A stretch of 64,000 nt of DNA from a virus: UHGV virus genome UHGV-1455077; one strand, written 5' to 3'. The translations under genes and the position numbers were made by a program. How positions within the stretch are numbered: position 1 is the stretch's first letter; every line of letters starts with the position of its first letter. The notes under the pieces were generated by a model, which saw only the letters and a program-made list of their open reading frames with translations, was not told the origin of the DNA and did not search any database. Positions 11,146-63,987 of this stretch are shown here, one piece after another.

Positions 11146-12780
11146 TTACATTCCCATTTGTGATGGTTTCATTGCCGACATTAACTTTAAATTAGTTTCT
11201 GTATCATCAATAATTAATCCTTCAACAGTAAGCAATGAACCAGCAATAGATGCTCCGTTTTCCAATGCACAACGAACAACTTTCGTTGCATCAAGAATAC
11301 CTGCTTCAATTAAATCACAGAATTTATCATTACGAGCATCATAACCATATGAATAAGTTTCATTATCTTGAACCTTTTCTACAATTACTTCACCAGTTTT
11401 TCCTGCATTTTCAGCAATTTTTTTCATTGGAGCAGATAAAGAATTAAGAACAATACCATATCCTGTCCATTCATCATCTGTTATAGCAAAATCAAGATTA
11501 TTACTAATTTCTTGATATGCTCTTACAAGAGAAACACCACCACCTGGTAAAATACCTTCTTCAAGTGCCGCTCTCGTTGCACATACAGCATCTTCAACAC
11601 GGTCTTTCTTTTCTTTAACTTCGGTTTCTGTTGCACCACCGACTTTAATAACAGCAACGCCTTTAGTCAATTTTGCAAGTCTTTCACGAAGTTTTTCTTT
11701 ATCATATGAAGATTCAGTATTTTCAATTTCAGCAATTAATTGTTCAGCTCTTTCAGAAACAGCATTTTTATCACCGTGTCCACCAATAATAACTGTTTCA
11801 GTTGGTGAAATACGAATTTTATCACAAGAACCTAATGATTCTATTTTAACATCTTCTAATTTATATCCCATTTGTGTTGAGATAAATTCACCACCTGTTA
11901 AAATTGCAATATCTTCCATTTGAAATTTACGAATATCACCAAATGAAGGAGCTTTAACTGCACAAACTTTTAAACCTGCTTTCATTCTATTAATTACTAA
12001 TGTTGACAAAGGTTCATCAGCCATTTCATCTGAAATAAGAACTAATGGTTGACCAATTTGCATAACATCTTCAAGCAATGGCAAAATAGATTGAATTGTA
12101 TTAATTTTACCATCATATAAAAGAATCAATGGATTATCATATTCAACTAATTGTCTTTCTGCATTAGTCATAAAATATGGAGAAAGATAACCTTGGTCAA
12201 ATTGTAAGCCATCAACAACTTCCAATTCAGTTTTTAATCCTTTTGCTTCCTCAACCGTGACAACACCACGTTCACCAACAATTTCAATAGCTTTAGCAAT
12301 AAAATCTCCAATTTCAGCATCGCCGTTTGCAGAAATAGTTGCTAATTGTCTAATTTCTTCATTAGTTTCAACTTTTTTAGAATGAGATTTTAATACTTCA
12401 ACAACATCTTTAACAGCTATATTAATACCTTGCTGAATTTCAGTTGATTTACGACCTTTTGAAATCCATTTTAAGCCTTCTTCAGCAATTGCAGATGCAA
12501 TAATACAAGTAGCTGTTGTTCCATCACCTGCATCTCTATTTGTTTTTTCAGAAGCCTGAACAATTAATTTTGCTCCTTCACCTTCTGCATCCATTAAAGT
12601 AATAGATTTTGCAACTGTTACACCATCTTTAGTAACTTTTGGTGTTCCCCAAGACTGTTGAATTGCAATTGTTCTACCACCAGGGCCTGATGTTTGTGCA
12701 ACAACATCAGAAACTGTTTTTAATCCTTTATATAGCTCTGTACGAGCTTCATCGCCTTTAATAACTTTTTTAATTGGCAT
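11146..12780 (-). CDS. groEL: chaperonin GroEL (phage-encoded, no C-terminal GGM repeat tail)
   Basis: 544 aa; hallmark GDGTTTATV-type motif ([12 protein letters not shown]) and LPGGGV; ends KPSQMGM instead of (GGM)n. Confidence 0.9.
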
Positions 12781-33516: not shown

Positions 33517-33546
33517 AAAAATGGTACGCATTGCGTACCATTTTTT
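33514..33546. terminator. bidirectional rho-independent terminator
   Basis: aaaaaaatggtacgcattgcgtaccatttttt perfect 10-bp stem. Confidence 0.8.
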
Positions 33547-34117
33547 AGAATTCATCTAATTGTGTTTCCCAATACTCTTTCGAAAACCAATCATTATCAT
33601 CGTATTCTTTATTTTTACGATTTTTCTTTGCATTTTCTTCCAATTGTCTAATACTTGGAATATATGGTTTATGTATTAAATGCATATGTGATTCCTCAAG
33701 TGTTTTACCACCTTTTTTACTATTACATTCTCTACAAGCTGTAACAATATTATCCCAACAAGTTTTACCGCCTTTACAGCGAGGATGTACGTGGTCAAAT
33801 GTTAAATCATCTGCTTTAAATCTTTTACCACAATATTGGCATACATAATCATCACGAAGATAAACATTTCTTCGAGAAAATTTTGGAGTATGATTAACAT
33901 TTACATACTTTTTTAAAACAACTATTTTAGGCAGTTTCATTTCTTTATTTTGAATAATAATAGAATCATCATATTCTTTAACAACTGATAATCTTCCCTT
34001 TAATAAGGATTTAATAACTTTTTTCATACTATTCAAAGATAATGGGTATCTACTTAAAGGCTGATAATCTCCATTAAGAATTAAAACTGGTCTATTCATT
34101 ATACTTTTATTTGTCAT
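33545..34117 (-). CDS. HNH endonuclease
   Basis: 190 aa; YVCQYCGKRF...FDHVHPRCKGGKTCWDNIVTACRECNSKKG HNH/zinc-finger core; overlaps upstream AAA gene by 11 nt. Confidence 0.75.
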   Translation of the reverse strand: MTNKSIMNRPVLILNGDYQPLSRYPLSLNSMKKVIKSLLKGRLSVVKEYDDSIIIQNKEMKLPKIVVLKKYVNVNHTPKFSRRNVYLRDDYVCQYCGKRFKADDLTFDHVHPRCKGGKTCWDNIVTACRECNSKKGGKTLEESHMHLIHKPYIPSIRQLEENAKKNRKNKEYDDNDWFSKEYWETQLDEF

Positions 34118-40983: not shown

Positions 40984-42774
40984 TTATACTGATGGAGTTG
41001 AACCTGCACCTGCGGTTGGAGCAATACCCATACCACCTGCATCTCCTGATGGCATTCCACCACCCATTTCACCATTACCCATACTACTCATATCACCACC
41101 TGCTGGCATACCACCTAATGATTCCATACCAGCATTCATATCTGCCGCCATATCATTCAAGTAATCCATTGAAATATCTTCAATACCAACGGTACGTAAA
41201 CCAGGAATTTGATTTTTATCTTCAGTTGGTAATTCAACATCTTCATTTTTAAATCTATTTTGATTTTCAATAATCAATAAACGCTGATTTTCATTAAATT
41301 CTTCTTCTGTAAGTTTCAAATAATATTTTAATGCGAATTGTTTTGAGATATATTGACTTCCAGATGCACTAAGAAATGCATTTAATCTATTTGTTTTAAT
41401 TTCTTCTTCTGAAATTTCAGTAATATTAGATGGTTCATTAAAAGTTAAATTAAAACTATCTTCATTAACATTAATTCCTCTATGTTGCAAAAATCTTTTA
41501 TATTCTTTATCTAATTCAGGAATTAAAATATCTTGAATACGACAACAAAATTTAAAAAATCTTAATTCTTGAACATATGCATTTGCAACATTTGTTGGTA
41601 AAGTTCGTTGTCCGTCAGTTGGCCCGTAAGGTACCCAAGATTGTGGAACATTCATACCACGAATTAATAAATTCTCCCAAAAAACCATATCATTAATTTC
41701 ACCAAGTGCTTGACCACCAGCTAATTTTTCAATTTTTGGCTGAACACCATCTGAATCAACTGGTAAGAAATAATCTTCATTCATTGGAATTGAATTATAT
41801 GCAACATCTATTGTATTAAATACACCATCTGTATCTTTAGCAGGCATACGTCTTTGAGATAATTCATTTTTGGTTTTTTCAAGTATTTGTTTACGCTTAT
41901 AGCGAGGTATTCCCCCAACTGGAATATAAAAAACTAATTTTTCTGTTGCATTTTTAATTCTATATAATAAAATGCAATCTTGTAATAACATTTTTTGGAT
42001 ATAAATTTTATAAATTTTTTCTAAAATTGATAATCCAAATGGAAAAAGTAATACATTATCGACATTTAATGATAAATGAATTACATTATCAGCACTAACT
42101 GGTAAAGTTGTATTATCATCAGTTGGATTTGGAGAGGTTGATGCATTTGCAGTATTGCTTGCATTAACAACACCAGGAAAATTAGAATTAATTGTATTTA
42201 ATAAATTTCTTGTAGTAACATCTGATTGTGCAGTTGTTGCAACTTTTAAAGGAACATTTAATTCAACATTTTTAATAACATAATGTGTTGGATTTTTTAA
42301 ATCATCTACAACAACGCCTAACACATCATATATATTAACTTTTTGTAATTCATATGTATCAGGGTCACGAACAAAAAATACATCTCCATATTTTAATGCA
42401 TCTCGAATTGTTGGATACATTCTTTTTTTCCATTCATTTGTTTTAACCCAATCATCTAATTCTTTTTCAATTGTTAGTGTTTGGGAATCAGGCAACTTTT
42501 CATTTGCAGTATATTCAATTTTAAATGGCTTATCTTTATCAGCTTGGATAACATAATCTACAATCGTATCTAATGACCAAGAAATAATAGGGTCTTGTTC
42601 CATACCATCATAAATAGTATATCTTTCACAACGATTATTTGGGCCTTGATAAACTGCTGGTAAATAATTTTTATATCTATCATAAATTGACGTAGCATTA
42701 TCTCCAGAATTACCTCTAACTCCAAGCTTTGCTTTTGGTAATGTTACCGCTTTTAAAAATTTTTTATAAGACAT
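40984..42774 (-). CDS. portal protein, T4 gp20-like, with Gly/Met-rich C-terminal tail
   Basis: 596 aa; size, position upstream of prohead core/protease genes and overall pattern; C-terminus GGMPAGGDMSSMGNGEMGGGMPSGDAGGMG; late motif AATAAATAT 26 nt upstream. Confidence 0.8.
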   Translation of the reverse strand: MSYKKFLKAVTLPKAKLGVRGNSGDNATSIYDRYKNYLPAVYQGPNNRCERYTIYDGMEQDPIISWSLDTIVDYVIQADKDKPFKIEYTANEKLPDSQTLTIEKELDDWVKTNEWKKRMYPTIRDALKYGDVFFVRDPDTYELQKVNIYDVLGVVVDDLKNPTHYVIKNVELNVPLKVATTAQSDVTTRNLLNTINSNFPGVVNASNTANASTSPNPTDDNTTLPVSADNVIHLSLNVDNVLLFPFGLSILEKIYKIYIQKMLLQDCILLYRIKNATEKLVFYIPVGGIPRYKRKQILEKTKNELSQRRMPAKDTDGVFNTIDVAYNSIPMNEDYFLPVDSDGVQPKIEKLAGGQALGEINDMVFWENLLIRGMNVPQSWVPYGPTDGQRTLPTNVANAYVQELRFFKFCCRIQDILIPELDKEYKRFLQHRGINVNEDSFNLTFNEPSNITEISEEEIKTNRLNAFLSASGSQYISKQFALKYYLKLTEEEFNENQRLLIIENQNRFKNEDVELPTEDKNQIPGLRTVGIEDISMDYLNDMAADMNAGMESLGGMPAGGDMSSMGNGEMGGGMPSGDAGGMGIAPTAGAGSTPSV

Positions 42775-47784: not shown

Positions 47785-47811
47785 AAAAAAGGAGTTTTAA
47801 ACTCCTTTTTT
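47785..47811 (-). terminator. rho-independent terminator after giant gene
   Basis: aaaaaaggagttttaaactcctttttt. Confidence 0.75.
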
Positions 47812-50800
47812 ATTTTTCTTCAAAATATGATAACATTTTTTGAATTACAATTGCACTTTCAGCTTCTAAATAATCATATTTTGTTTGATTTCCTATGAAA
47901 ATTGAATCATCACGAGAATCATAATCACCATTCCAGAAATTTAATGTTACATTAAAATCTTCTGCAACAGTAACTTTACTACCAACAGGAACAGTTGCTT
48001 TTGTAAATGGTAATTCATTTGTTAAATATTCAAGAGTATCATTACTACCTGTTTTTAATCCTAATACAACTGCGGATGTTGAAACTCCTGAAACTAATGA
48101 AAATGTTATTGGATATTGATTATATCCTTCTCCAGATATATCTGGTGTATAAATTTTAACATTATTAGCAAAACTGTTTTTCATATATGAAGCATCTAAT
48201 ACACCGTTTTTAGTTATATTAATTCCCATATAATCATAACCATTCCATAAATCTTCGGTAATAATAAAATCAGTTGTTCTTGGTGTTTCATCTCTATACC
48301 AATTTGGAACATTATTTTTTAATTCTGCATCATCCATATATGTATATAAACTATCAGAAACATTAATTGTTCCATCTTGTAAACCAACAGTATGGAAGAT
48401 TGGAGATGTTCCTTGCATTCCTTCATATTGTTTAAGTATCCACTTGCCATCAGAATATATTTTTACAACATCGCCTGTTTCAAAATGATATTCTTCAAAA
48501 TGTTCTTGTAAATCAATCTCTGATTCAAAAGTTGCTCTTGGTGTTATCATTTTAATTGAATCATCAGCATATAAATCTTTATATGTCCAATATTTAGAAA
48601 CATCATAAGTTTGATATTTTAATAAAGTATAATCATTTAAATTATCCATTCTCCATAAAGTCCAAATATTTTCATATACTTCATCAGTTTTTACTAAAAT
48701 TGTTTTTCCAATTAAAGCTGTGTCTTCACTTGAAATCATTTCTAAATGAGTATCAAATGAATAATCATATTCTGGATATGGTTCTTTACTTAAAAATATA
48801 TTATTAAATTCACTTGAACCAACATCAATATCTGATAATACATCACGAGTATCAAATATATGATTTAATATATCAACGAAATTTTGTCTTGCTTTTGATA
48901 TATTTTCAAACATTGTTTGTCGAGGTCTAATGTAAATACCAATTTTATTTCTTTCTAATAATTCTGGGTCAGGAACAACTTGACCTAAAGAATCATAGCC
49001 AACTAAACTTGCTTTCATTTTATCCCATAATGAATCTGGAATTTCGGCATCAGTATTTTCTTTAACTAAAACCCATTCTTCGTGTTCAGTTACATCATTA
49101 TCGCCTAAAAAATTCAATTGAATTACAAAATCTCTACCTGCATTTATTGTATCAAAATTACCAATAATCATTGAACTATATTGTGTTTCGCCATCATACG
49201 CATATACAGGAGCATACCAAATTACACCTTCATCTTGTGGAGAATTGATAATTTGCGAAATATATAATGCACTTGTATGTCTGAATTGAACTGAAGGTAT
49301 TTCAGATGGATTTTTTACCCAATAGTAATAATATACTTCATTTTTTTCAGTTGAATTATTATATACTTCTTTAGTTACATAAGAAATATCTTTTGGTTCA
49401 GTTGTTGATTTAGTCCATTCCATTATAGCAATTTCTGAACCAGGCATTTGTTTACCCCAATTATTTCTTCTATAAGTAATTTCTCCTTGTGAATAGTCTA
49501 AATATTTAACTTTTGAAATATCCCACCATAATTGTCCAACTTTATTATCACCCCAAGTTGAATAATTATTATAATCAGCAGGGTCTTGTGCAATTATATA
49601 ATTAATTTCTTTTAATAAATTATTTGGAAAAACTCCTTGAATTGGGTCATAAGGCTGAATAGTTGCCATTGTTTCATTATTATCATCATTAACCATAAAG
49701 CAAGATTTAACTTCTTTAATATTAACTTTACGATTTTGTAAACGATATAATGAATATGTTTTATCAACTGTTGGTTTATAATCTATATCAGTTTCTCCAA
49801 CATCATAAACTTCTCCAGATTGTTCATTAATATATTTAAATACTGACCAAGCCATTTTATCAATAATATTTTGTGAATCATTAATATGATAAGATGGGTC
49901 ATAAATTTTCTTTAAGTTATCTACATTATTAATAACATCTCTTAATACATATATTAAATCGCCAATTTCTAAATGAGTTGTATCAAAACTATAAACATCA
50001 GCAATTTTATCAACAACCATAGAAATCCAATTGTTTTCTTCATCAACTTTTTTACGTATATCCCAACCTTGTTTAGTATTGGCAAATGAAATCCAAACTT
50101 TTTCACCAACTTTCATATTTTTTAACATTTCATCAAAAGTTGTTTCATTATCAATGATATAATTTGTTTCACCAATTTCTGCAAATCCAGCAGTTGGATA
50201 AAATTTAAAATTATTTGTAAAGTTAAATTTATTTAATTCTTTACTTTCTTTTTTCTTTAACCAATTTGAATTATTCCAAGTAATATCAATAATAGAATTA
50301 TTTAATTTAACATTATCAGATGTTGTAAATGAAACAATTTGAGGGTCTTGCGTGATTAAATCAGGTTGTACTTTTAATTCAATAATTGAACTATTTGAAG
50401 TATAACCAAATTCTCCAACTTTAAATGCCCAGTTTTCAAACAATTCAATTTCATTATTTTCTGCATCCATAATATAAGTTGAACGATTTAATTTATCAAA
50501 TGAACGTTTTGTCCCTTTTTCTTTAAGTAATCCTTTATAGAAATCAAAGATATTTCTATCATCAATTAATAATCTTTCCATAGATGGTAATTTTTGAAAA
50601 CCAATAGTTCTCTTTGCATAATCACCAAAAATACCTTGTGAGCGAACATCATCAGTATTATAGAAATATTTAAAATCATTAGCTAATTTATCATAGTTTG
50701 GATATGCTCCATTTTTATCAATTAAATAACCAGGAGCAAAATATGTTCCGTTCCAGCCATCAACTTTAATACCTAAAAGTTTTAAACGCTGTGCTTTAAT

Positions 50801-53800
50801 ACAAAGTAATGGGTCATATATAATGTCACCATAAATTGTTTGATTATCAAATAATATAATATGTTCATTTTCAATTTCTTTAATTTTCAAACAAGTAATA
50901 GCTTTATTTGTTGAGAATATATAAGTATCACCTTCTTTACGATAAACATCTAAATCTTCATTGAATATTGGTAAAGAAGCAGTATTTAATACTGACCAAT
51001 AACCATTAACATATTGTCCAACTTTATCAATAAATGCATCGTGGAAAATACCAATACCATCAGCACCAGGATTTAACATAATAATTGAATCTGTTTCAAT
51101 ATTTGTTGTCGTCCATAATAAGAAATCTCTAGCTTTATTTCTGAAATTTACCAATTCTCCATTGGTATCTAACATATTAAAATACCATCCTTCAACATCT
51201 TCAAGATATTTTCCATAACCATTAATAATATTATAAACATCTTGAATAGAAGAATAAACAGTTTTATAATTTATTTTTTCTAATTTATCAGTCCATTCAT
51301 TATAATAAATAACATTTCTTCCAGCAATATTAACAGTTGATTTTTTACCATTATATTGAGGAATTTTTACCATAAAATATGGCTTTTCATAATCATAACC
51401 ATCTATCATATAACCAGATTCAACTTTTTGAATTACAATTGCTGAATATGAATATTGTTTATCGGTAATAGTTTTATATAAATCTAATTCATAATTTTGT
51501 GAAGGAATAACTCCAAAATTATCTGATAAAATTTTAATACTATCATATTTGTAATAGCCTGCACATTTATAAGATAATTTCATTGTAATTTTTCTTATTG
51601 AATCAGCAATATAATTTGTAATATCTACATTTTCGTGTAATAAGAAATCTGAAATCCATTGTTGAATACCAATTTTTTGAATATAAGAATTATCAACTAA
51701 TTCATTATGCATAACAACATCAGATGGAGAAGGTCTTTTACCTAAATCATCATAAATAATTTGCTCATATGAAGTATCTTTAAAAATAACTTTAATATTT
51801 TGAGTATCCCAATTTCTTTCTACCCATTCTGTTGGTCTCATCATATATAAAATTGATTGAATTGAATATCTATATTCAGATGTATACATCCACGCAAATT
51901 CCCAACGACCAATATCACCAACTTTCCAAGATTGTCTTGCATAATATGGAATAGGAGCATTTAAAACAATACCAATATCAACTGGATTTAATAATTCACC
52001 ATTTTCATTAACTGGTAAATATTTTTCAATTAATTGTGGACGTTTTAAAAATTCATATTCTCCTTTTGATTCTCCATCAGCTACGTAACCATTTTCAATA
52101 TCTTGCCACATAGGTAAATTTGCAGAAGTATATGGTGCAGTACCATAATGTTCTTCCCACCATTCAGGCATTGAACCAAAACCTAACATTTCCCAAGGAT
52201 GAGTATGAGGTCTATAAGTATCATAGTAATACATATAAATTGATTTATATGAACCATATAATTGTTCGCCATCAGCATCTACACAAGTTGAATAATTCCA
52301 AGAAAATGGGTCATTTTGGTCAAAACCATCATTAATAGTATAATCAACACCTTTATCTTGACACCATTTTTCAAAAATAGGAGTTAAAAATTCTTTATAT
52401 TCTTGTTGATTATAACTTGTTTCTCTAAATTTACCAGGAATATATTCTAACTTATTGTATAATGGTAAACTATTTTTAAATTTATCTAAGATTGAATTAT
52501 AAATAGCTGTTTCAATTCCTAATAATGCTTCATCACGATAATCATTAAATAACATTTGATATGAACCATCGTGGCAAAGTAAAACTTTTGGTTTATTAGC
52601 ATTTTCTTCAAATACAATAATCTGTGGCTTATAACAAGAATCTAATCCTAAATATGCAGGAGTAGCTGGAATATAACATTCTCCATATTCATTTGCTACA
52701 CCATTATTATAAAATGAATTTAATCCTTCTTTACCAATATTAATTTTACTTAATGCAGTTTGAATAATTTTTTTAACATCTGTTTGTTGAGTTATATGAG
52801 AAACTGAACCTGTTGGACTAATAACATCAACAGTTTCATATTCATCATATTCTCCACTATTACTCATTGAAGTAATAATATTTTTAAATTTAGTTTTAAA
52901 TTTTGTATATTCATTAGTTATATATGTTAATACTGTTCTTATATTTGAAAATTCACGAGAATTTAGCAACATTGTTTTAAGGGCAGGACTTTCGTGTTGT
53001 AAAATTTCTGTACCTAATGATAAATCTTTTTTTGTATTATTATAATTATTATTTCCTGATGAATTACCACTAAATGCACTTTGATTTTCAATGATGCTTC
53101 TTAATTGGTCAAAACATTCATTATAATTAATTTGAGAAATATCTTCATTCATTGCATTTGAAGTAATAGTTAATGGTAAATCATAAAAATATCCATCAGC
53201 AATTGTATCAGTTAACTTTTTAACTAATAATTTAATATATAAGCTATCATCAGTATTTAAAATACTTGTTTCAGCAATCATTAATTTTTTATCTTTAATG
53301 ATATAATCAATACCGTCATTTAACAAAACACCATTTAGATATACAAATGATGATTTTTTATTTGTAACTTCGTCTGGCTGATATGCTAATTGAAAAACAG
53401 TATATTTCACATCATCAATTGTTTCATATACTTTATTATCTGAAACTGTTAACTCGGTTGTAATATATTGAGTAGTTATATCTTTAGAAATATACCAGTT
53501 ATTTAAATATACATCTTGTCCATTTAATTTAAAAAACTTAAATCCATCATACTCTTTTAATATTGTATAATCATAATAAGTAAATGTTTGTGTTCTAATT
53601 ATATTATCAAAAATGTAATTACCATAGCCATCAGTAACAATAGCTTTATTTAAATCTTCATCTATTGTTGCTCCTGCTTCATCAGTTGTAACATAATCAA
53701 ATAATTTACTTCCCTTAAATGATGATTGATTGTAATATAATTGATTATCTAAAGTGTTTTTTTCATCATCATAAAGTTGAAATAATGGTGATTGATTAAC

Positions 53801-55174
53801 ATTATGCTTTTGTTGTCCTGTTATCCATTCTCCATTGTTATAATAGTAATAAATACCTGCATAACGACCTTTACGTACAGTTATGCCTTCTCCTTCAACT
53901 GGTGAACCATCTGTTGATAAACCATTAATTACTGGTTGTAAAATAACAGTATTAATTGATGAAACGCCTGAAACTTGATAAATTCTATTATTTGATAATT
54001 CATCAGAATCGCCTGTGATTAAAATTGTCATTCCATCTTTTAAATCAACCCCTTGTATTGGTTGTGGAACAATACCATTTAAATCATTCTTTCTACTATT
54101 AACAATTAAATCAACATATCCACGATTATAAGTTCCATAATTATATAATTGAATATCTTTATTAAAACATAAAATAGGTTTTTTAGCCTGAATATATTGA
54201 ATTTTTCTTGTATTATCTGTGTATCTGATACTTTCAAACTCACCAAAAGTTTTAACTTTAATTGTTAAATCCATATCAGCATAAATCATTGTATCATCAG
54301 TCATATCTTCTGGCGATGCGTTTGTATAATATAATACATTATTACTTATTAATTGATAAATTATTGTATTTTCAATTTTATCTAAAACTGAACGATGAAA
54401 CCAACGATTTCTTAATGACCAAGCGTTACCATCAATTGCTCCTCTTTCCATAACATAATAATCAGGAGCTTTAGATATTGAAGATAAAATTTCACTATCA
54501 TTAATTAATTGAATTGATGAACCAACTCCTTCTACAATAAATGGAATATTATTATACTCTGGATTTTCATCATTAATAAATAACACTCTCATACCAGATG
54601 AAAAATTTACTGTTACTTCATTTTCATCTTCATCAATTCCTTTATAAGTATAATTTTCTTTTCCAATAATATCAGTAACAGCATTTGTTTTTGATAATAA
54701 TTCTACTGGTGGCTGACCATCTTCTACCCAATAATAAAAGTTATAGTTTAAAAACATATCTATATTAATTGGCGGACACCAAGACCAATATGTATCCGAA
54801 AGCAATCTGTTTTGGTCATTTGTTTCACAACCCTGAATTTTCAATGTATTTAAGAAATTACTAAAATCAACAACGGAATTATTTGATTCTAATGATTCAT
54901 CATTAGGATTTGTTGTTACTAAAACAGGTGATAATTGATAAGTTTTTCTTTCACTTGATGGTTCTGAAAGATAAAAATCACCTTTTTCTAATGCAACCGA
55001 TTTTTTACCAATATATCCATTAATATAACTTTCATATGATTGTTGGAAAAATGGATTTAAAACATAATCTATATATTTGCCAATTAGTTGTCTATTTGAA
55101 AATTCTGCTGGAAAAAAATCTTTTAAATCTTTTTTAACAATTTGTTTAACCGAAGTTGCTTCATTAATTGCCAT
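47810..55174 (-). CDS. giant virion structural protein (2454 aa), likely tail fibre/baseplate-associated
   Basis: single uninterrupted ORF of 7.4 kb; late motif 26 nt upstream; Asn/Tyr-rich beta-type composition; no enzymatic motif recognised. Confidence 0.55.
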   Translation of the reverse strand: MAINEATSVKQIVKKDLKDFFPAEFSNRQLIGKYIDYVLNPFFQQSYESYINGYIGKKSVALEKGDFYLSEPSSERKTYQLSPVLVTTNPNDESLESNNSVVDFSNFLNTLKIQGCETNDQNRLLSDTYWSWCPPINIDMFLNYNFYYWVEDGQPPVELLSKTNAVTDIIGKENYTYKGIDEDENEVTVNFSSGMRVLFINDENPEYNNIPFIVEGVGSSIQLINDSEILSSISKAPDYYVMERGAIDGNAWSLRNRWFHRSVLDKIENTIIYQLISNNVLYYTNASPEDMTDDTMIYADMDLTIKVKTFGEFESIRYTDNTRKIQYIQAKKPILCFNKDIQLYNYGTYNRGYVDLIVNSRKNDLNGIVPQPIQGVDLKDGMTILITGDSDELSNNRIYQVSGVSSINTVILQPVINGLSTDGSPVEGEGITVRKGRYAGIYYYYNNGEWITGQQKHNVNQSPLFQLYDDEKNTLDNQLYYNQSSFKGSKLFDYVTTDEAGATIDEDLNKAIVTDGYGNYIFDNIIRTQTFTYYDYTILKEYDGFKFFKLNGQDVYLNNWYISKDITTQYITTELTVSDNKVYETIDDVKYTVFQLAYQPDEVTNKKSSFVYLNGVLLNDGIDYIIKDKKLMIAETSILNTDDSLYIKLLVKKLTDTIADGYFYDLPLTITSNAMNEDISQINYNECFDQLRSIIENQSAFSGNSSGNNNYNNTKKDLSLGTEILQHESPALKTMLLNSREFSNIRTVLTYITNEYTKFKTKFKNIITSMSNSGEYDEYETVDVISPTGSVSHITQQTDVKKIIQTALSKINIGKEGLNSFYNNGVANEYGECYIPATPAYLGLDSCYKPQIIVFEENANKPKVLLCHDGSYQMLFNDYRDEALLGIETAIYNSILDKFKNSLPLYNKLEYIPGKFRETSYNQQEYKEFLTPIFEKWCQDKGVDYTINDGFDQNDPFSWNYSTCVDADGEQLYGSYKSIYMYYYDTYRPHTHPWEMLGFGSMPEWWEEHYGTAPYTSANLPMWQDIENGYVADGESKGEYEFLKRPQLIEKYLPVNENGELLNPVDIGIVLNAPIPYYARQSWKVGDIGRWEFAWMYTSEYRYSIQSILYMMRPTEWVERNWDTQNIKVIFKDTSYEQIIYDDLGKRPSPSDVVMHNELVDNSYIQKIGIQQWISDFLLHENVDITNYIADSIRKITMKLSYKCAGYYKYDSIKILSDNFGVIPSQNYELDLYKTITDKQYSYSAIVIQKVESGYMIDGYDYEKPYFMVKIPQYNGKKSTVNIAGRNVIYYNEWTDKLEKINYKTVYSSIQDVYNIINGYGKYLEDVEGWYFNMLDTNGELVNFRNKARDFLLWTTTNIETDSIIMLNPGADGIGIFHDAFIDKVGQYVNGYWSVLNTASLPIFNEDLDVYRKEGDTYIFSTNKAITCLKIKEIENEHIILFDNQTIYGDIIYDPLLCIKAQRLKLLGIKVDGWNGTYFAPGYLIDKNGAYPNYDKLANDFKYFYNTDDVRSQGIFGDYAKRTIGFQKLPSMERLLIDDRNIFDFYKGLLKEKGTKRSFDKLNRSTYIMDAENNEIELFENWAFKVGEFGYTSNSSIIELKVQPDLITQDPQIVSFTTSDNVKLNNSIIDITWNNSNWLKKKESKELNKFNFTNNFKFYPTAGFAEIGETNYIIDNETTFDEMLKNMKVGEKVWISFANTKQGWDIRKKVDEENNWISMVVDKIADVYSFDTTHLEIGDLIYVLRDVINNVDNLKKIYDPSYHINDSQNIIDKMAWSVFKYINEQSGEVYDVGETDIDYKPTVDKTYSLYRLQNRKVNIKEVKSCFMVNDDNNETMATIQPYDPIQGVFPNNLLKEINYIIAQDPADYNNYSTWGDNKVGQLWWDISKVKYLDYSQGEITYRRNNWGKQMPGSEIAIMEWTKSTTEPKDISYVTKEVYNNSTEKNEVYYYYWVKNPSEIPSVQFRHTSALYISQIINSPQDEGVIWYAPVYAYDGETQYSSMIIGNFDTINAGRDFVIQLNFLGDNDVTEHEEWVLVKENTDAEIPDSLWDKMKASLVGYDSLGQVVPDPELLERNKIGIYIRPRQTMFENISKARQNFVDILNHIFDTRDVLSDIDVGSSEFNNIFLSKEPYPEYDYSFDTHLEMISSEDTALIGKTILVKTDEVYENIWTLWRMDNLNDYTLLKYQTYDVSKYWTYKDLYADDSIKMITPRATFESEIDLQEHFEEYHFETGDVVKIYSDGKWILKQYEGMQGTSPIFHTVGLQDGTINVSDSLYTYMDDAELKNNVPNWYRDETPRTTDFIITEDLWNGYDYMGINITKNGVLDASYMKNSFANNVKIYTPDISGEGYNQYPITFSLVSGVSTSAVVLGLKTGSNDTLEYLTNELPFTKATVPVGSKVTVAEDFNVTLNFWNGDYDSRDDSIFIGNQTKYDYLEAESAIVIQKMLSYFEEK

Positions 55175-55971: not shown

Positions 55972-58758
55972 TTACTTATCATTACTAACTGTTATAATTT
56001 CCCCATTAGCAGGTTGATTATTTAATATCACATAATTCATTTCTTGCTTTGCGGCTTTTTCAAGTGTAGATTCATCTGATGAATATGCAACTTCTTCAGT
56101 AACTATTTTATAATCATCTTTAGTTAATAATACTGGATTTTCACTATAAATGACACTATCTGTTGTATATTCTTTATCAATATAAAAATTAGTAATTCTA
56201 TAACGAGAAGAATTTACTTCTTGAATATTTTCAAAATACAATTTTTCATCATTAATAAAAATATATCCCATAAAAGAAGGTTTAGAACTTTTAATTTCAA
56301 TTTTATTACCATCATAAATATTATTTTTATTAGTTACAGTTGGTAAACCTAAAATTTCAATATTATCTTCATTGCTTGTTGGAGATGTTAAATTACTAAT
56401 TGTAATATCTATATTTTGTAATGGCATTATGACTAATTTATTATCATAAATATATGCTTTAACAATATTTTTTGTTGCCGATAAATTATTAATTGTATCA
56501 ACAGCATCTTGTAATGTACCTCTTTCTGGATGTTCTTTCATATATCCAGTTGAATTTTTATCTGAACCCCAAACAACATTATTTTTATTAATTCTTAATC
56601 CATTTGAACCATCTTTTAAAATTGGTGTATCTGTTGTTATATATGCTTTAGTTCCTTGAACATATGTACCTGTTAATTCTTGTAAAGGACTTCCAACATT
56701 ATTACTAAGTACGATACTTTTTCCCTGATTAGCAATCATAACTATATTATTATTATCTTTAATAATATTAAAATTAGATATACCAGAAGTTGATTGTTTC
56801 ATATATGTTATAAATTCATCAATACCTGTTATATTTTTTGTAATTTTGACAATATATGTTTTATTTCCAATAATAACATTTAAATTCTGATTTGAATGAA
56901 TTACTAAATTATTTGTTGGTATTGTTAATGACACATTACCTGGTTTATAGATATTATCACTTGAAATATCAAAATATGTACTATTATATTTTATTGGTGT
57001 TAATAAATTTATTAATGGCTTAATCATTACATTAACTTTTTCATTATCAGTTAATGTACCTGGAATTATAAATTTATTTTCTACATCATCGGTAATAAAT
57101 GTCATTATTGATTTAACTCGTGATGAACAATCTTTTTGTGTAGATTCTCTAAAATCAATAACATAATCATTTATATTATGTTTTTCTGCTAAATAACTTC
57201 CGTCTGCACCTCGTCTTATTCTTTTTAAAATATTATTTGCTTCATCAACTTCATAAAATTCAATAATTTCAGAATTAATAATTATTTTTCCTGGAGTAAT
57301 ATCTTTGTTTTTTTCAATAATTGGTAGTTTAAGAGCATTAATATTTTTAACATATATTTCAGAATCACCAATATTTAAATCTTTTGTTAATTGAGTAATT
57401 TTACTTTTACTAAAATTCATTTTATATTGATAATCTTTATAATCACACCCATATAATGAAGTTGGAACATTATTATCATCAACATTATAAATCATTAAAT
57501 ATGGTAATGGAGCAGATACACAAAGTTCAGATGGTCTTTCAACTTCATATGAAGGTCTTAAAAAACCACTACCATCAACATTAATAACATTGTTTGATTG
57601 TCCATAACGGTCTTCCCAAGTATATATTTTATCATATATATAATAATAATCAATAGTTGTTACAATTATATGTCCATTTTCCACAATTCTATTATCATAA
57701 TATTGATTATTTTCTTTATCAAATGGAAGATAAACTTTACCATCAACTAATTCCCAATTTGTTAATGGAACTCTTGTAATTTGTTCACTTATATCTCTTG
57801 TACCATTTGGATATTCAATATTAACAGTTATTTTATTACTATTAAATCCGCCTTCTGGAACATCAAAATACTCTGTACCATATTCTTTAAATTCTTTTAA
57901 TCCTGTATCTGATGACATTTTATTAAATGGATGTCCAACAAAAACCCAAGATTTTTTTTGACCATCTTTATTTTCAGTAATAACAAGTTTTTCTAAGTTA
58001 CGAATTGTATAAAATAATGTTAATAAATTATTTTCTAATGAATAATCAGTAATTTCTGTTTCTATTCCATTAAAATATGATGTTATTGTAATAAAATTAT
58101 GTTGTAATAAATCTTCATTTTCTAATTTAAATGTTTGTAAACCAACATTTACAAATTCTTTTATATAAGGATAATCAAAATTTTCATTATAATTAACTAA
58201 ACAATAATCATTAGTTACTGTTGGTGCATCATACAAAGTTGAATCATATAAAAATGCATCATATCCAGCCGTATCAACATTAAATGTTGAACCATTAATT
58301 GTAATTCCTTTAAAATGGCAATTTAAATAATCTTTAATATCATCTAAATTTTTAGTTTTATATGCATATAATCTGTTTGCCATATGTGTGTCCATATATT
58401 CAATATCAGATAAAGAACCTTGAGGGTCAACTGCTGATGTTACAGCATCATAACGAATATACATTGTTATATTATTTTTTTCTTGTTCTTTTGCCCCAGA
58501 AACATTTACATCATCTCGTTGAGAAGAATATTTTTCAATAAATTGTTCAAATTCCACGTGATAGGGCTTAATTTGATAAATGTAATCAATAACATCTTCA
58601 ATAACTGAATCTTGTTTATATTTTTTATTATTAACTGTTGAGTTAATACCAGTATAATTCACTAAACTGGTTTTTAATGCCCAATCAACGTTTTTTTGTT
58701 CTGAAAAAATATAATGCAATAAACCAAAAAATATTTTATTTTTATCTAATAATGACAT
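55972..58758 (-). CDS. large putative structural protein (baseplate/fibre)
   Basis: 928 aa; late motif 25 nt upstream. Confidence 0.5.
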   Translation of the reverse strand: MSLLDKNKIFFGLLHYIFSEQKNVDWALKTSLVNYTGINSTVNNKKYKQDSVIEDVIDYIYQIKPYHVEFEQFIEKYSSQRDDVNVSGAKEQEKNNITMYIRYDAVTSAVDPQGSLSDIEYMDTHMANRLYAYKTKNLDDIKDYLNCHFKGITINGSTFNVDTAGYDAFLYDSTLYDAPTVTNDYCLVNYNENFDYPYIKEFVNVGLQTFKLENEDLLQHNFITITSYFNGIETEITDYSLENNLLTLFYTIRNLEKLVITENKDGQKKSWVFVGHPFNKMSSDTGLKEFKEYGTEYFDVPEGGFNSNKITVNIEYPNGTRDISEQITRVPLTNWELVDGKVYLPFDKENNQYYDNRIVENGHIIVTTIDYYYIYDKIYTWEDRYGQSNNVINVDGSGFLRPSYEVERPSELCVSAPLPYLMIYNVDDNNVPTSLYGCDYKDYQYKMNFSKSKITQLTKDLNIGDSEIYVKNINALKLPIIEKNKDITPGKIIINSEIIEFYEVDEANNILKRIRRGADGSYLAEKHNINDYVIDFRESTQKDCSSRVKSIMTFITDDVENKFIIPGTLTDNEKVNVMIKPLINLLTPIKYNSTYFDISSDNIYKPGNVSLTIPTNNLVIHSNQNLNVIIGNKTYIVKITKNITGIDEFITYMKQSTSGISNFNIIKDNNNIVMIANQGKSIVLSNNVGSPLQELTGTYVQGTKAYITTDTPILKDGSNGLRINKNNVVWGSDKNSTGYMKEHPERGTLQDAVDTINNLSATKNIVKAYIYDNKLVIMPLQNIDITISNLTSPTSNEDNIEILGLPTVTNKNNIYDGNKIEIKSSKPSFMGYIFINDEKLYFENIQEVNSSRYRITNFYIDKEYTTDSVIYSENPVLLTKDDYKIVTEEVAYSSDESTLEKAAKQEMNYVILNNQPANGEIITVSNDK

Positions 58759-58802: not shown

Positions 58803-58856
58803 CACGAATAAATATATATACAAAAGAATAAATATATATACAAAAGAATAAATATC
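58803..58856 (+). repeat. 2.5 tandem copies of 20-bp unit GAATAAATATATATACAAAA, each carrying the late-promoter-like motif
   Basis: direct reading: gaataaatatatatacaaaa gaataaatatatatacaaaa gaataaatat; last copy 26 nt from ATG 58882. Confidence 0.8.
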
Positions 58857-58881: not shown

Positions 58882-59409
58882 ATGAGCTATTCAGGTTTTT
58901 TAAGTGACCCAGAGTATACACGCAGAAGTCAGGATGAAAATGTTACAGGAAATTGGACATTTGAACATATTGTGACTTGCAAAGAAGCTATTCGTGGTAC
59001 AGCTATTGCCACATATTATGGTGACTTAGCAGAATATTATACACATTCTGTTATGGAACAAATTCCTGTGGGAACTTTAGTTAAATTTGGTGGCGAAAAA
59101 GAAATTACAAAAACCCAACCTAATGATAAACATTGCTTTGGAATTATTTCTTCAAAACCTGGTATTGAATTAAATAAAAAAACTCAAGAAGGTGCATTAC
59201 CTGTTGCATTATGTGGTAAAGTTCCTTGTAGAGTTTCTGGAACAATTAAAAAATTTGAAAAATTAACAACTTCTAAAATTGCAGGTGTTGCAAAAAAGAA
59301 AACATTTTTAGATTGGTTACTCTTTAAACCAACAATTGGTATTTCTTTAGAAGAAAAAACTAAAAAAACTGAAAAACTTATTGAAATTTTTATGCACACT
59401 CATATATAA
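58882..59409 (+). CDS. hypothetical protein
   Basis: 175 aa; first gene of plus-strand cassette between minus-strand structural genes. Confidence 0.45.
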   Translation: MSYSGFLSDPEYTRRSQDENVTGNWTFEHIVTCKEAIRGTAIATYYGDLAEYYTHSVMEQIPVGTLVKFGGEKEITKTQPNDKHCFGIISSKPGIELNKKTQEGALPVALCGKVPCRVSGTIKKFEKLTTSKIAGVAKKKTFLDWLLFKPTIGISLEEKTKKTEKLIEIFMHTHI

Positions 59410-59454
59410 TAATTCTTATAGTAAATAATTTTATATTATTACATAGGAGATATT

Positions 59455-60279
59455 ATGAAAACTTTAATTGTTTACCCAACTTTTTTATGCCCTTATTCTT
59501 GTGCATTTTGTCTTACTAAAGATAAAAACTCATTAAATGAATTTTTAGATATTTTTAAATTAAGAGATTTTTTAGAAAAGAATGCATCAAAATTTGATAA
59601 AATTAAAATTTCTGGCGGTGAACCAATGTCAATCAATTATGATTATTTTAATGAATTGGTTGATACTTTAAAAGAATTTAATACAAACATTGTCGTATCA
59701 TCATATCCTGTTGAATTAAAAAATTATCGTGATGATATTGAATATGAATTTTCATATGATTTTTTAGCTAGACCTCGTGCATTAGAAGTTTGGGAAAATC
59801 TTTTGAATTTTCCTAAAAAATTTGATGTAAAAGTTTTAGTATCTCCTCAAATTTTAAAAACATTTCACCCAAATGTAATATTAAATAAATTGTCAATATT
59901 ACCAAACATTAATACTGTTGAATTTAAAGAATATTATAGAAATGAAACAACTATGTGGAATTTAAATAGTTTAGTATATGATAAATTTATTAAATTAGTG
60001 TTATCATCTCAATTAAATGTTCCATTTATTAACTTAAATAAAGAAAAAATGAGATTTTTAAATGGTAAAACCTCTAAAGCCAATGAATCTTTTTTTGAAG
60101 AAGAATATTGTTTATTACCTGATAATAAATTATATGTTCAACAGTTCAATGAAAACGATATTTCTTATTTTAAAGAAATAAATGAAAATGATATTGGTTT
60201 AGAAAAAGTTAATTATCCAGAAGAATATAATTTTTATTCTAAAAATTTAAGACAATGGAGTCTTAATAATGACATCTAA
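59455..60279 (+). CDS. radical SAM enzyme, QueE-like (7-carboxy-7-deazaguanine synthase family) / activase-like
   Basis: 274 aa; CxxxCxxC cluster CPYSCAFC (compare B. subtilis QueE CDYSCSWC) and SAM-binding ISGGEP. Confidence 0.65.
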   Translation: MKTLIVYPTFLCPYSCAFCLTKDKNSLNEFLDIFKLRDFLEKNASKFDKIKISGGEPMSINYDYFNELVDTLKEFNTNIVVSSYPVELKNYRDDIEYEFSYDFLARPRALEVWENLLNFPKKFDVKVLVSPQILKTFHPNVILNKLSILPNINTVEFKEYYRNETTMWNLNSLVYDKFIKLVLSSQLNVPFINLNKEKMRFLNGKTSKANESFFEEEYCLLPDNKLYVQQFNENDISYFKEINENDIGLEKVNYPEEYNFYSKNLRQWSLNNDI

Positions 60280-61015
60280 TAAAGCAAAATTAGTTAATGC
60301 TCCCTTAAACATTAACGATATGGATGAAGACTTAGAATCAAAAACTGTTTATGTATTTGATTATTCTAAGTCTTCATTACAAGGTTTAGATTTTTTAAAT
60401 TACATTAAAAATACAAGTGTTGTGTCAGATATTTTTATTTCTGCCGATGTGCCAACATTTACAAAAAATACATTATTAGAATCCTATATGAAATCATCAA
60501 CATTTTATCATATAACTTCATTTAATTTAACAATATTAAATATGATTTATATTATAAAAAAATCTAAAAAAAGAATAACTTGTACATTTTTTTCAGAAGA
60601 AGAATCTAATCAATTTATTAATACACATTCAGACTTACTAAATGAATGGATAAACGTGTATGATTCATTATTTGCTTATATGTTAATTTTATCTTCTATG
60701 GATAAAAATGATATTTTTAATAATGATAAAATTCGTTCTTTTTATGATGCTGATAAAATGAATAACAATTCATCATTATCTCCAAATGTTATGTCTTTAC
60801 TTCTTGATGATGTATTTTATTACTATTATGAAGATGGTATTAATCGTTCAAATGTATCATACTATAAAAAATATTTTGAAGAAAAATTATATGACAATAA
60901 ATCATTACAAATGATTTTATTAAATGATGCTAATTTTATTTTTAAAATATTATATGATATGGTTCATAATGATGAATTTAGTAAATATTTAGAAAATCAT
61001 CCAAATCTAAAATAA
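60269..61015 (+). CDS. hypothetical protein translationally coupled to radical SAM gene
   Basis: 248 aa; 11-nt overlap with upstream gene. Confidence 0.45.
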   Translation: MTSNKAKLVNAPLNINDMDEDLESKTVYVFDYSKSSLQGLDFLNYIKNTSVVSDIFISADVPTFTKNTLLESYMKSSTFYHITSFNLTILNMIYIIKKSKKRITCTFFSEEESNQFINTHSDLLNEWINVYDSLFAYMLILSSMDKNDIFNNDKIRSFYDADKMNNNSSLSPNVMSLLLDDVFYYYYEDGINRSNVSYYKKYFEEKLYDNKSLQMILLNDANFIFKILYDMVHNDEFSKYLENHPNLK

Positions 61016-62422
61016 ACTTAATACCGAGTCCATAGATATATTTGTTGTATTAGTAATTTTTCCAATAATTGAAGATGGGTCATCAACCACTTTTAGAATA
61101 TATTTGCCTTTATCTTCCGACTCATTGTAATTTTCTATGGTTTTTTGTACTTGTAATACAAAATTTGTTTCATCTGCAAAACCTAATTTACGAGCTGTAT
61201 CAAGTAATTGAGATTTAAATTTATCCCAACGTTCTTCACTTGGAGCATCTAAAATACCTTTAATAAATGATACTGCGTTTTCAACAGTAAATTGAACGCC
61301 TTCTTTATATCTTTTATTTAAAAATGTTGCCATATTACCAGTAATTGATGAATTTATCATTGCTTTAAGATATGATTTACTTTCTTCACTTCCAAAAGTT
61401 GTTGTATAAGGTTCAACATCTAATAAATCATTTGTTATTCCTTCAAATTTAAAAGTAATATTAATTTCATTTGGTGCCCAACTACCAATTTTTCCTGTAC
61501 CAAAATCTATTGATGTAATTTTTGGATTCATATATGTATAAACCATCATTTTATCCATATACATTTCAATAACAGATATTTTATCAATGAAATTAAAATA
61601 ACTATCTAAATTCCATCCCCAATGAGTTGGGTCAGTATCAAATTTATGTAATAATATTTCCTTATTATAATCATTATAATCTTTACATAAAAATGTATCG
61701 TTAATTACTTTTAAATACGCAAAGAAAAATTGCTGAACTGGATTTTCTTTAACATCATAAAAAGAAATATTTAAATCACCATATGATAATTTTTCATTAA
61801 CTAAACGTGGACGATTATATTCATTAAATTGTTTAACTTCTATATCAATTTTTGGTTTACTAACTGTTTTAACAAATTTTGATAATTCAAATGATAATTG
61901 CTTTAATAAAAATTTATCAGGTAAATAATCTGCATTTGTTTCGGCATCAACATCTGCATTAAGACCTAATGCTCCACTAACCGCATCAGTAACTCCTTTT
62001 TTTAAATTTGAAAGAGAATTAGAAACTGATGAAATCGTATCAGATATACTATCTGATATTGTATCAAAAAATCCTTTATTCTTGCTTTCAGAAACAGAAT
62101 TTTGATAAGATTCAGATGCATCAGTTGAAGATTGTTGTGCAGAAAGTCTTGTTAAGTATTCAATTAATGATTTTTTTTGATTTATTAATGTTTGAATATT
62201 TGGATTTAATGAAAAATAAACAAAAAACATTGTTTCTGGTTTTGGTAAATTTGGAATTGGTGCTTTTGTTTGATATTTCTTTTGACCTTCCAAATTTGTA
62301 TATTCTGGAACAAAATCTTGACCATAAACGGTGCTGATATAATCAACACCACTTACTGCTTTTACAACGTTTGAATTATATAATTTATTAGTAACACCAC
62401 TAATTAATGATTCTATTCCCAT
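61007..62422 (-). CDS. putative structural protein
   Basis: 471 aa; late motif 26 nt upstream. Confidence 0.45.
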   Translation of the reverse strand: MGIESLISGVTNKLYNSNVVKAVSGVDYISTVYGQDFVPEYTNLEGQKKYQTKAPIPNLPKPETMFFVYFSLNPNIQTLINQKKSLIEYLTRLSAQQSSTDASESYQNSVSESKNKGFFDTISDSISDTISSVSNSLSNLKKGVTDAVSGALGLNADVDAETNADYLPDKFLLKQLSFELSKFVKTVSKPKIDIEVKQFNEYNRPRLVNEKLSYGDLNISFYDVKENPVQQFFFAYLKVINDTFLCKDYNDYNKEILLHKFDTDPTHWGWNLDSYFNFIDKISVIEMYMDKMMVYTYMNPKITSIDFGTGKIGSWAPNEINITFKFEGITNDLLDVEPYTTTFGSEESKSYLKAMINSSITGNMATFLNKRYKEGVQFTVENAVSFIKGILDAPSEERWDKFKSQLLDTARKLGFADETNFVLQVQKTIENYNESEDKGKYILKVVDDPSSIIGKITNTTNISMDSVLSLF

Positions 62423-63003: not shown

Positions 63004-63987
63004 TTAATTTTCCATTATTTCATAATTATCAGAATTTTCTTCAATATCTTCTGACTCATCAACAATTTCATTTCCGTCATCATCATATAATATATTTTTA
63101 AATTCTTCTTCTAACTGCTCATTAAATGTTGGATTATATCCAATTTCTTGCATCAATTTAGATTTTATTCTTCGTTGTGTTTTTTCAGAATTTAATGTAG
63201 CTGTAAATTTATTTGATGCCACTTGTGTTAAATATGAAAATACATTATTAGATTTTGATTCCTCAAATTTTAATGCCACATCGCATAAATGAACCAATGC
63301 AGAGCCTTTCATATCATCTAAATATGTATATCCAGACCAATTTCCTGATTTTGCAAATTGGTCAACCAGCATAATAATCATATATACTAAGCCATCACTC
63401 AAACGTCCTTGAGATATATCAAAATGACCGCTTTCAATAGTATCTCCTTTCCAATGTGACCTTAAAACTTCTTTAGCATCTTTTAAAATATCTGTTGAAA
63501 ATGTTTCAGATAATTTTTTAATTTCATTTGTTAAATTTTCAATGTTTTCTTTACATAATTTATTATTTTCTTTAAACGGTATTTGTTTATCTTTTGTTTG
63601 TTGATTTAATCTTATATTCCGATTATTATCCTTAATTTTTTCTTTTAAATTTGAAATTTTTAAATTTAATTCATCAATTTTATTCAAATTACTTCCAAAA
63701 TTTTCAAAAGTTTTTTCAAAATCATCTTTATCAATTAAAAAATGTTTAAATGGCGACATTTTAAGTTCTTGTAAATTAACTTTACCATTCTTACAATATG
63801 GTAAAACGTGTTCATTCGTCATCACTCTAATTATAATATATGAACTATTTGGATTTTTCTTGAAAAAATCATTCATAATATTCGGCGTAATTAAATTATA
63901 ATCCTCACATATAATATCATATTGTCCATATTCAGGTTTTTCATAACAACAATATGTTAATTTTGATTTATGTACTTCTTCCAGCAA
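63004..63987 (-). CDS. late sigma factor, T4 gp55-like, with about 170-aa N-terminal extension (5-prime end may lie beyond window)
   Basis: C-terminal half GLVYMIIMLVDQFAKSGNWSGYTYLDDMKGSALVHLCDVALKFEESKSNNVFSYLTQVASNKFTATLNSEKTQ parallels T4 gp55 [73 protein letters not shown]. Confidence 0.55.
   Translation of the reverse strand: MLEEVHKSKLTYCCYEKPEYGQYDIICEDYNLITPNIMNDFFKKNPNSSYIIIRVMTNEHVLPYCKNGKVNLQELKMSPFKHFLIDKDDFEKTFENFGSNLNKIDELNLKISNLKEKIKDNNRNIRLNQQTKDKQIPFKENNKLCKENIENLTNEIKKLSETFSTDILKDAKEVLRSHWKGDTIESGHFDISQGRLSDGLVYMIIMLVDQFAKSGNWSGYTYLDDMKGSALVHLCDVALKFEESKSNNVFSYLTQVASNKFTATLNSEKTQRRIKSKLMQEIGYNPTFNEQLEEEFKNILYDDDGNEIVDESEDIEENSDNYEIMEN

Follow-up and report, generated by a model that had tools for sequence, protein, structure and literature searches.

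Radical S-adenosylmethionine (SAM) chemistry is well known from the biosynthesis of cofactors and of peptides that are made on ribosomes and modified after translation (RiPPs), as well as from the antiviral viperins; no radical SAM enzyme is known to mature a virion protein of a phage. In jumbo phages, the genes of radical SAM clusters have been mentioned as annotations only, with no function attached (PMC5468394, PMC8066314, PMC11898562), and for phages resembling Ralstonia phage RSL2 we found nothing in the literature on the function of these genes beyond mentions of this kind. Here we describe a three-gene cassette from a 64,000 nt stretch of the virus genome UHGV-1455077 (this whole stretch is termed the window), in which a small fibre-like protein (open reading frame 1, ORF1), a radical SAM enzyme (rSAM) and a partner protein are encoded one after the other (Table 1). 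Taken as a whole, the cassette may serve the radical maturation of a virion protein or peptide, a reading to which we give a probability of roughly 40 %.

Cassette architecture and source genome

An earlier note on this DNA had described three plus-strand genes with products of 175, 274 and 248 aa, embedded between structural genes, and ORF calls bore out both their positions and their setting, the cassette being flanked on one side by a tail-tube-like gene and on the other by genes whose 928-aa and 2454-aa products are virion proteins. The translational coupling that it had proposed for the second and third genes is likewise seen: the end of rSAM, stop codon included, shares 11 nt (ATGACATCTAA) with the beginning of the partner gene, and GGAG is situated 8 nt upstream. 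All three are real genes rather than chance ORFs, as the exact rSAM protein is present on 148 public contigs, the three genes adjoin one another in an unchanged order in each of the 12 relatives fetched (down to 40–45 % protein identity), and the ratio of non-synonymous to synonymous substitution (dN/dS) is 0.23–0.32 for each gene when compared with the closest relative, this pair alone having been used as dS is saturated in more distant ones.

The contigs carrying the exact protein reach 293 kb and relatives of the cassette-bearing phage originate from gut metagenomes; thus, the source genome is a ∼290 kb T4-core jumbo phage. In keeping with this description, the window (G+C content ∼25 %) encodes a T4-type Gp23 capsid, a Gp20 portal, a DnaB helicase and a Cpn60 chaperonin, further products being a tail-tube-like protein and a late sigma factor resembling gp55. 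The capsid protein is ∼53 % identical to the capsids of Rak2-, CBB- and Phosso-type jumbo phages. No isolated phage with a DNA-level match to the cassette was found in a distant blastn search.

Descent of the radical SAM enzyme

Both motifs reported by the earlier note were located in the 274-aa protein, namely CPYSCAFC (aa 12–19), which is the only CxxxCxxC across window ORFs of ≥ 70 aa, and ISGGEP (aa 52–57). The protein thus has a GGE motif and a CxxxCxxC whose final Cys follows an aromatic residue, together with a partial TIM-barrel fold, as is characteristic of the radical SAM superfamily. Matches to Pfam and NCBIfam models are confined to the first ∼80 residues, which hold the cluster and GGE motifs, and lie far under the curated cutoffs; the top NCBIfam match, NrdG2, reaches 24.8 bits where the cutoff is 131, and behind it come viperin, AmcB, MoaA, DynA and HxsC, with no QueE model among them. 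When a 13-sequence profile was compared with PDB sequences, ThiH, viperins and SuiB were matched at E-values of ∼1e-3 to 1e-4, and QueE at 0.4. In a fold ranking the highest scores were those of ChlB (17.4, 246 residues aligned) and anSME (16.3, 245 residues aligned), followed by SkfB (15.4), TigE and viperin (15.1 each), SuiB (14.3), MoaA (14.0) and the pyruvate formate-lyase activating enzyme (PFL-AE; 12.7), with three QueE structures at 11.3, 8.2 and 8.0. The leading entry, ChlB, is a triceptide cyclophane synthase (PMC12912966). Overall, the fold is closest to that of the SPASM/twitch maturases, including the beta-hairpin after the barrel.

The family, which has at least 1505 members, includes homologues that align with 23–27 % identity in RSL2, RSF1, FLC6, Atu_ph07, Phosso and one IMG/VR contig. 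Such distant homologues are ∼307 aa long and bear an extra C-terminal segment containing CX2CX5CX3H-x10-C, which is found in all 84 of those listed, whereas CX2CX5C occurs in none of 42 gut-clade proteins, whose only invariant cysteines are C12, C16 and C19. CX2CX5C with one downstream Cys is presumably the ligand set of a single SPASM auxiliary cluster, as in the anSME structure. A 31-residue segment is deleted from the window enzyme, which therefore has no auxiliary-cluster cysteines. From this distribution we infer descent from SPASM/twitch maturases followed by deletion of the auxiliary site, and we regard it as highly probable that the enzyme belongs to the SPASM lineage and not with QueE or NrdG. 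It is not filed as a SPASM/twitch member, because the cysteine-rich C-terminal domain for one or two auxiliary [4Fe–4S] clusters, the defining feature of that group, is absent. Several of the distant homologues are labelled AslB or MoaA/NifB/PqqE/SkfB by JGI.

The ancestral ∼307-aa form (e.g. L001:11732-12673, L002:7272-8192 and L007:7998-8912) carries an invariant His (84 of 84) at the place of the fourth Cys of the canonical SPASM motif, CX2CX5CX3C. This substitution suggests, at the level of sequence, an unusual single auxiliary site.

ORF1 and its Peptidase_G2 domain

Whilst the 175-aa product had previously been listed as unknown, it scores 27.1 bits against Pfam PF11962 (Peptidase_G2), passing the gathering score of 25, and its orthologues in relatives are weakly flagged by the same model. 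It also matches the C-termini of PHROG tail fibres and can be aligned over its entire length with the C-terminal parts of longer fibre-like proteins, namely Atu_ph07 gp176 (607 aa), a Phosso protein (626 aa) and a protein of an IMG/VR locus (L019, 357 aa). Blocks kept across the ORF1 family are (Y/A)DLAE.Y, GT.V..GG, FG.IS and P.AL.G.VP, and a family profile search matches the phi29 gp12 autochaperone (PDB 3gqh). The chain of the released phi29 gp12 domain starts with DFAEYFE, which aligns with D48-LAEYY of ORF1; on the basis of this alignment, autocleavage by the intramolecular chaperone (IMC) domain is predicted to fall between G47 and D48, leaving a 47-residue N-terminal stub. The long trimeric fibre or spike passenger that usually precedes such a domain is absent, as no more than these 47 residues stand ahead of the motif. 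In sequence (YSGF..., G.W.F), the stub is similar to the final turn of a fibre shaft.

Partner family and linkage in jumbo phages

For the 248-aa partner, the earlier note had recognised no motif. The protein does belong to a known phage family, phrog_20767 (E-value 6e-23), with 284 members or sequence clusters, mostly of 230–260 aa, in a full HMMER scan of 1.84 billion representatives. Across 45 diverse members Y45 and S133 alone are invariant and, judged by this conservation, the partner has no clear catalytic signature. The predicted-structure model is confident (pLDDT 89), and profile comparison revealed no relationship between the partner and rSAM. A search for Rosetta-stone fusions returned ten longer homologues (391–604 aa), whose extensions have no Pfam domains and are rich in proline and glutamate, and which are not enzyme fusions. 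Amongst partner homologues of the RSL2-like group (P0141, P0171, P0177, P0193, P0195 and P0206; L018:9182-10795), N-terminal extensions of 100–340 residues were observed. Extensions of this type are of low complexity, have no Pfam match and are probably disordered.

A gp077-type rSAM gene and a partner gene lie inside one co-directional cluster in 23 of 23 loci with enough flanking sequence, representing at least four lineages, and the outcome was the same whether loci were reached via the partner, via rSAM or from annotated phages. Clusters with several rSAM genes occur in Ralstonia phages RSL2 (gp066–078) and RSF1, Burkholderia phages FLC6/S13, Agrobacterium phage Atu_ph07 (gp164–172) and Sinorhizobium phage Phosso (XYS97439–97449). 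The window enzyme is of the orthologue type of RSL2 gp077, and the window partner of the type of RSL2 gp070, Phosso XYS97445 and Atu_ph07 gp169. In Atu_ph07, Phosso and three further loci (L020–L022) the order begins with a giant ∼4450-aa virion protein, a 199-aa protein, a 607–633-aa IMC fibre and a cupin; thereafter follow an rSAM, an unknown protein, the partner, a second rSAM, two further unknowns, a third rSAM and, finally, the gp077-type rSAM. Full-length matches to the PapB, DynA, DarE and anSME SPASM-maturase models, scoring below the cutoffs, were obtained for the other rSAM proteins of this cluster. RSL2-like clusters additionally hold genes for 2-oxoglutarate (2OG) oxygenases and dihydrofolate reductase (DHFR)-like proteins, and no IMC protein was found in the regions of these loci that were read, even by hmmsearch --max.

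The 2454-aa and 928-aa proteins beside the cassette match the 4449-aa Atu_ph07 gp180 (BLASTP E-values of 1e-177 and 5e-10, respectively) and, by this homology, the cassette is located in the same baseplate/fibre neighbourhood as the Atu_ph07-like cluster. In Atu_ph07 and Phosso, the giant virion protein and a fibre with an IMC domain precede the cluster, and the radical SAM gene here likewise lies behind such genes. We consider the cassette to be a minimal form of a larger jumbo-phage rSAM module that sits beside baseplate and fibre genes. Of the large cluster, the gut clade has retained nothing but the IMC protein, a single rSAM and the partner, which is the strongest argument, albeit an indirect one, for the three acting together.

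In L002 and in the Phosso-like loci L020–L022, a Gp23-like fragment ORF of 195–226 aa (Pfam Gp23) was seen ∼3–5 kb past the rSAM cluster, far from the real capsid gene.

Late promoter motifs and expression

The divergent intergenic region ahead of ORF1 contains a tandem repeat (Table 1) within which three T4-type late-promoter-like AATAAATA motifs are found, at −75, −55 and −35 of ORF1. In T4, late promoters have the consensus TATAAATA and are read by gp55; we take NATAAATA to be the equivalent of this consensus. Of 58 genes in the window, 21 have NATAAATA at −31 to −52; in these upstream intervals it occurs 22 times in sense and 5 times in antisense orientation, out of a total of only 50 occurrences on both strands of the window. 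The structural genes flanking the cassette carry it; genes with the motif at −35 are, for example, 61007-62422, 47810-55174 and 40984-42774. The gp55-like factor encoded nearby is likely to be the reader of these promoters. NATAAATA is absent ahead of rSAM and of the partner, and a search for intrinsic terminators found no terminator-like site. Accordingly, it is very likely that the three genes form one conserved late operon that is expressed together with virion genes, a timing more in line with morphogenesis than with DNA modification or an early role in anti-defence. The late-promoter-like motif is triplicated only ahead of ORF1, other window genes having at most two copies. Sigma-70 promoters were also sought, but their counts were no higher than in shuffled sequence. 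Beyond the present locus, the oriented NATAAATA motif could serve to map late operons across the phage clade.

Proposed function and alternative explanations

In function, the cassette most resembles a RiPP or protein maturase, and it forms part of an uncharacterized jumbo-phage rSAM/partner module. In the mechanism that we propose, the enzyme would bind a [4Fe–4S] cluster and SAM and cleave SAM reductively, and the 5′-deoxyadenosyl radical would take a hydrogen from a protein or peptide substrate. The partner would act as a non-catalytic, substrate-presenting or scaffold subunit, in parallel to the fused RiPP recognition element (RRE) of RiPP maturases, which the window enzyme does not carry; alternatively, it might itself be the target. 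The chaperone domain of ORF1 would trimerise the mini-fibre and then cut itself off, leaving the 47-residue stub, and this mini-fibre, before or after trimerisation and the G47|D48 cut, is the preferred substrate candidate, with related fibre-type virion proteins as alternatives. Candidate substrates (the ORF1 stub, the partner and fibre proteins) were picked by gene linkage alone. As the auxiliary cluster has been lost, the reaction would seem to do without an additional electron relay, and the loss argues against chemistry requiring an internal one. In its most specific version, which we consider rather doubtful, jumbo phages would possess a hitherto unnoticed radical SAM system for maturing virion proteins; in the minimal form described here, a SPASM-lineage enzyme without auxiliary cluster and a phage-only adaptor would modify the 47-residue peptide, trimerised and set free by its own chaperone domain, in a RiPP-like manner (for example by cross-linking or epimerisation), with the IMC domain taking the place of a leader peptide and the product being built into the baseplate/fibre apparatus.

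The rival that survives best, although we judge it unlikely, also has rSAM modifying protein, but with the 248-aa partner as its target (in the manner of an anSME/sulfatase-like or activase/glycyl-radical-enzyme-like pair) or another virion protein, ORF1 being merely a syntenic mini-fibre or a trans-acting fibre chaperone. The pairing of rSAM and partner in every locus with enough flank speaks for it, as association with an IMC protein is not universal and IMC proteins occur without rSAM; the translational coupling of the two genes and the invariance of Y45 and S133 point the same way. Weighing on the other side are the contiguity of ORF1 in all 12 gut-clade loci, the position of a fibre–IMC gene directly ahead of the cluster in three further lineages, and the lack of any known modification motif in the partner.

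We consider it rather unlikely that rSAM and the partner instead constitute an enzyme that modifies small molecules or nucleotides (MoaA-, viperin- or BtrN-like), making for instance a cofactor or nucleotide analogue for host takeover or counter-defence next to an unrelated fibre-assembly gene. None of the viperin and MoaA matches extends beyond the ∼70-residue cluster/SAM motif, their scores are far short of the cutoffs (21.8 against 180), and no viperin or pVip model that includes the C-terminal nucleotide-binding extension is matched above cutoff. Furthermore, the best fold matches, the ancestral Cys motif and the sister rSAM proteins all indicate peptide or protein maturases, the late-type promoter motif and tail-module location argue likewise, and the cassette includes no nucleotide-metabolism partner. 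As regards defence or anti-defence in general, PADLOC gave only a generic match to an N-terminal pVip-type radical SAM motif, and such a role was rejected.

The interpretation put forward in the earlier note is upheld in part. Its assignment of the 274-aa protein to the QueE/activating-enzyme clade, and with it a split 7-deazaguanine DNA-hypermodification pathway fed by a 7-carboxy-7-deazaguanine synthase, is largely refuted. The generic CxxxCxxC and GGE motifs, the automatic JGI name of the exact protein ('organic radical activating enzyme') and a QueC-like gene elsewhere in the genome of a related Burkholderia jumbo phage (PMC11898562) would fit that assignment. Membership of QueE, as of NrdG, is nevertheless rejected: family models stay below cutoff, the QueE E-value in the PDB profile search is poor and the fold ranking places maturases nearest, making this alternative highly improbable. 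As the note had itself remarked of QueC, QueD, FolE and NrdD, none is found by Pfam scans of 27 ORFs of the window, and FolE, QueD, QueC and DpdA/Gat are missing both from these and from the ∼20 kb loci of relatives. A glycyl-radical activase of the NrdG/PFL-AE type serving an anaerobic ribonucleotide reductase encoded elsewhere has in its favour the best NCBIfam match by E-value (NrdG2) and the anaerobic gut habitat of the phage, and is similarly implausible, as no family model is passed, the compact activase architecture is lacking and no NrdD was found among the 27 ORFs scanned.

Other genes of the window

The ∼4450-aa virion protein of Atu_ph07-like phages is represented here by at least two genes, for the 2454-aa and 928-aa proteins, in a rearranged order, and a 205-aa plus-strand ORF sits between these two minus-strand genes. 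Elsewhere on the minus strand, a phage GroEL-type chaperonin is encoded at 11146-12780 (Pfam Cpn60_TCP1, E-value 2e-71), and a 1014-aa tail-spike-like protein at 1949-4993, which combines an Mtd_N-like N-terminus, a pectate-lyase-like beta-helix and a CBM5/12 module and is possibly a receptor-binding depolymerase that offers a clue to the host. A 190-aa ORF beside the capsid module (33545-34117, minus strand) shares 41 % identity with XYS97428, an HNH endonuclease of phage Phosso whose gene is located near the Phosso rSAM cluster; going by this similarity, it is probably a mobile homing-endonuclease gene.

Table 1. Features of the cassette and its surroundings in the 64,000 nt window
Feature	Position	Strand	Description
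Tandem 20-bp direct repeat (GAATAAATATATATACAAAA x2 + partial third copy)	58806-58855	+	Divergent intergenic region; two exact copies
ORF1, 175 aa	58882-59409	+	47-residue fibre-like N-terminal stub, then Peptidase_G2-type IMC autoproteolytic domain (predicted)
D48-L-A-E51 predicted autocleavage motif	59023-59034	+	D48, L49, A50, E51 and Y53 invariant in alignment A6
rSAM, 274 aa	59455-60279	+	SPASM/twitch lineage (very probable), without auxiliary-cluster cysteines
CPYSCAFC codons	59488-59511	+	CxxxCxxC ligands of the radical SAM [4Fe–4S] cluster
Partner protein, 248 aa	60269-61015	+	Phage-specific family phrog_20767
Tail-tube-like gene	61007-62422	-	Flank of cassette, structural
T4 gp55-like late sigma factor	63004-63987	-	phrog_12791, E-value 2.5e-44
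928-aa virion protein	55972-58758	-	Context; homologous to part of Atu_ph07 gp180
2454-aa virion protein	47810-55174	-	Context; homologous to part of Atu_ph07 gp180

Significance and comparison with known systems

The rSAM and partner families occur in jumbo and mega-phages of gut, soil and plant-pathogen hosts, and the three-gene form in this abundant gut phage is the simplest version, consisting of an enzyme, a partner and a single small candidate substrate; as such, it is the most tractable entry point. Should the proposed function hold, virion proteins would be seen to undergo a new class of post-translational modification, one that might affect receptor binding or particle stability, and peptide engineering would gain a new enzyme–adaptor pair. 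Even if it does not, a likely mis-annotation ('organic radical activating enzyme', 'PFL activating enzyme' or QueE-like) is put right by the cassette.

Compared with the large clusters, which comprise four rSAM genes, a cupin, 2OG oxygenases, DHFR-like genes and several unknowns, the window has one rSAM and the partner left; the two are adjacent and in reversed order, and the fibre, unlike those of the large clusters, is cut down to 47 aa plus the IMC domain. ORF1 is like the IMC domains of the phi29 gp12 pre-neck appendage and the Dpo31 D4 chaperone in its PF11962 score and its D-(L/F)-A-E-Y motif, but full IMC fibres and spikes carry passengers of ∼450–690 residues in place of 47, and ORF1 is unusual with respect to this type in being a stand-alone gene that heads an operon with a radical SAM enzyme. 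With QueE and NrdG/PFL-AE, the window enzyme shares the radical SAM core motifs and a small size. From the SPASM/twitch maturases (anSME/AslB, ChlB, SkfB, PapB and DarE/DynA) it differs in having neither auxiliary cysteines nor a fused RRE and in passing no curated cutoff; and whereas the RiPP maturases of that group act on a leader–core peptide, the candidate substrate here is a fibre-type protein from a late structural operon of a phage.

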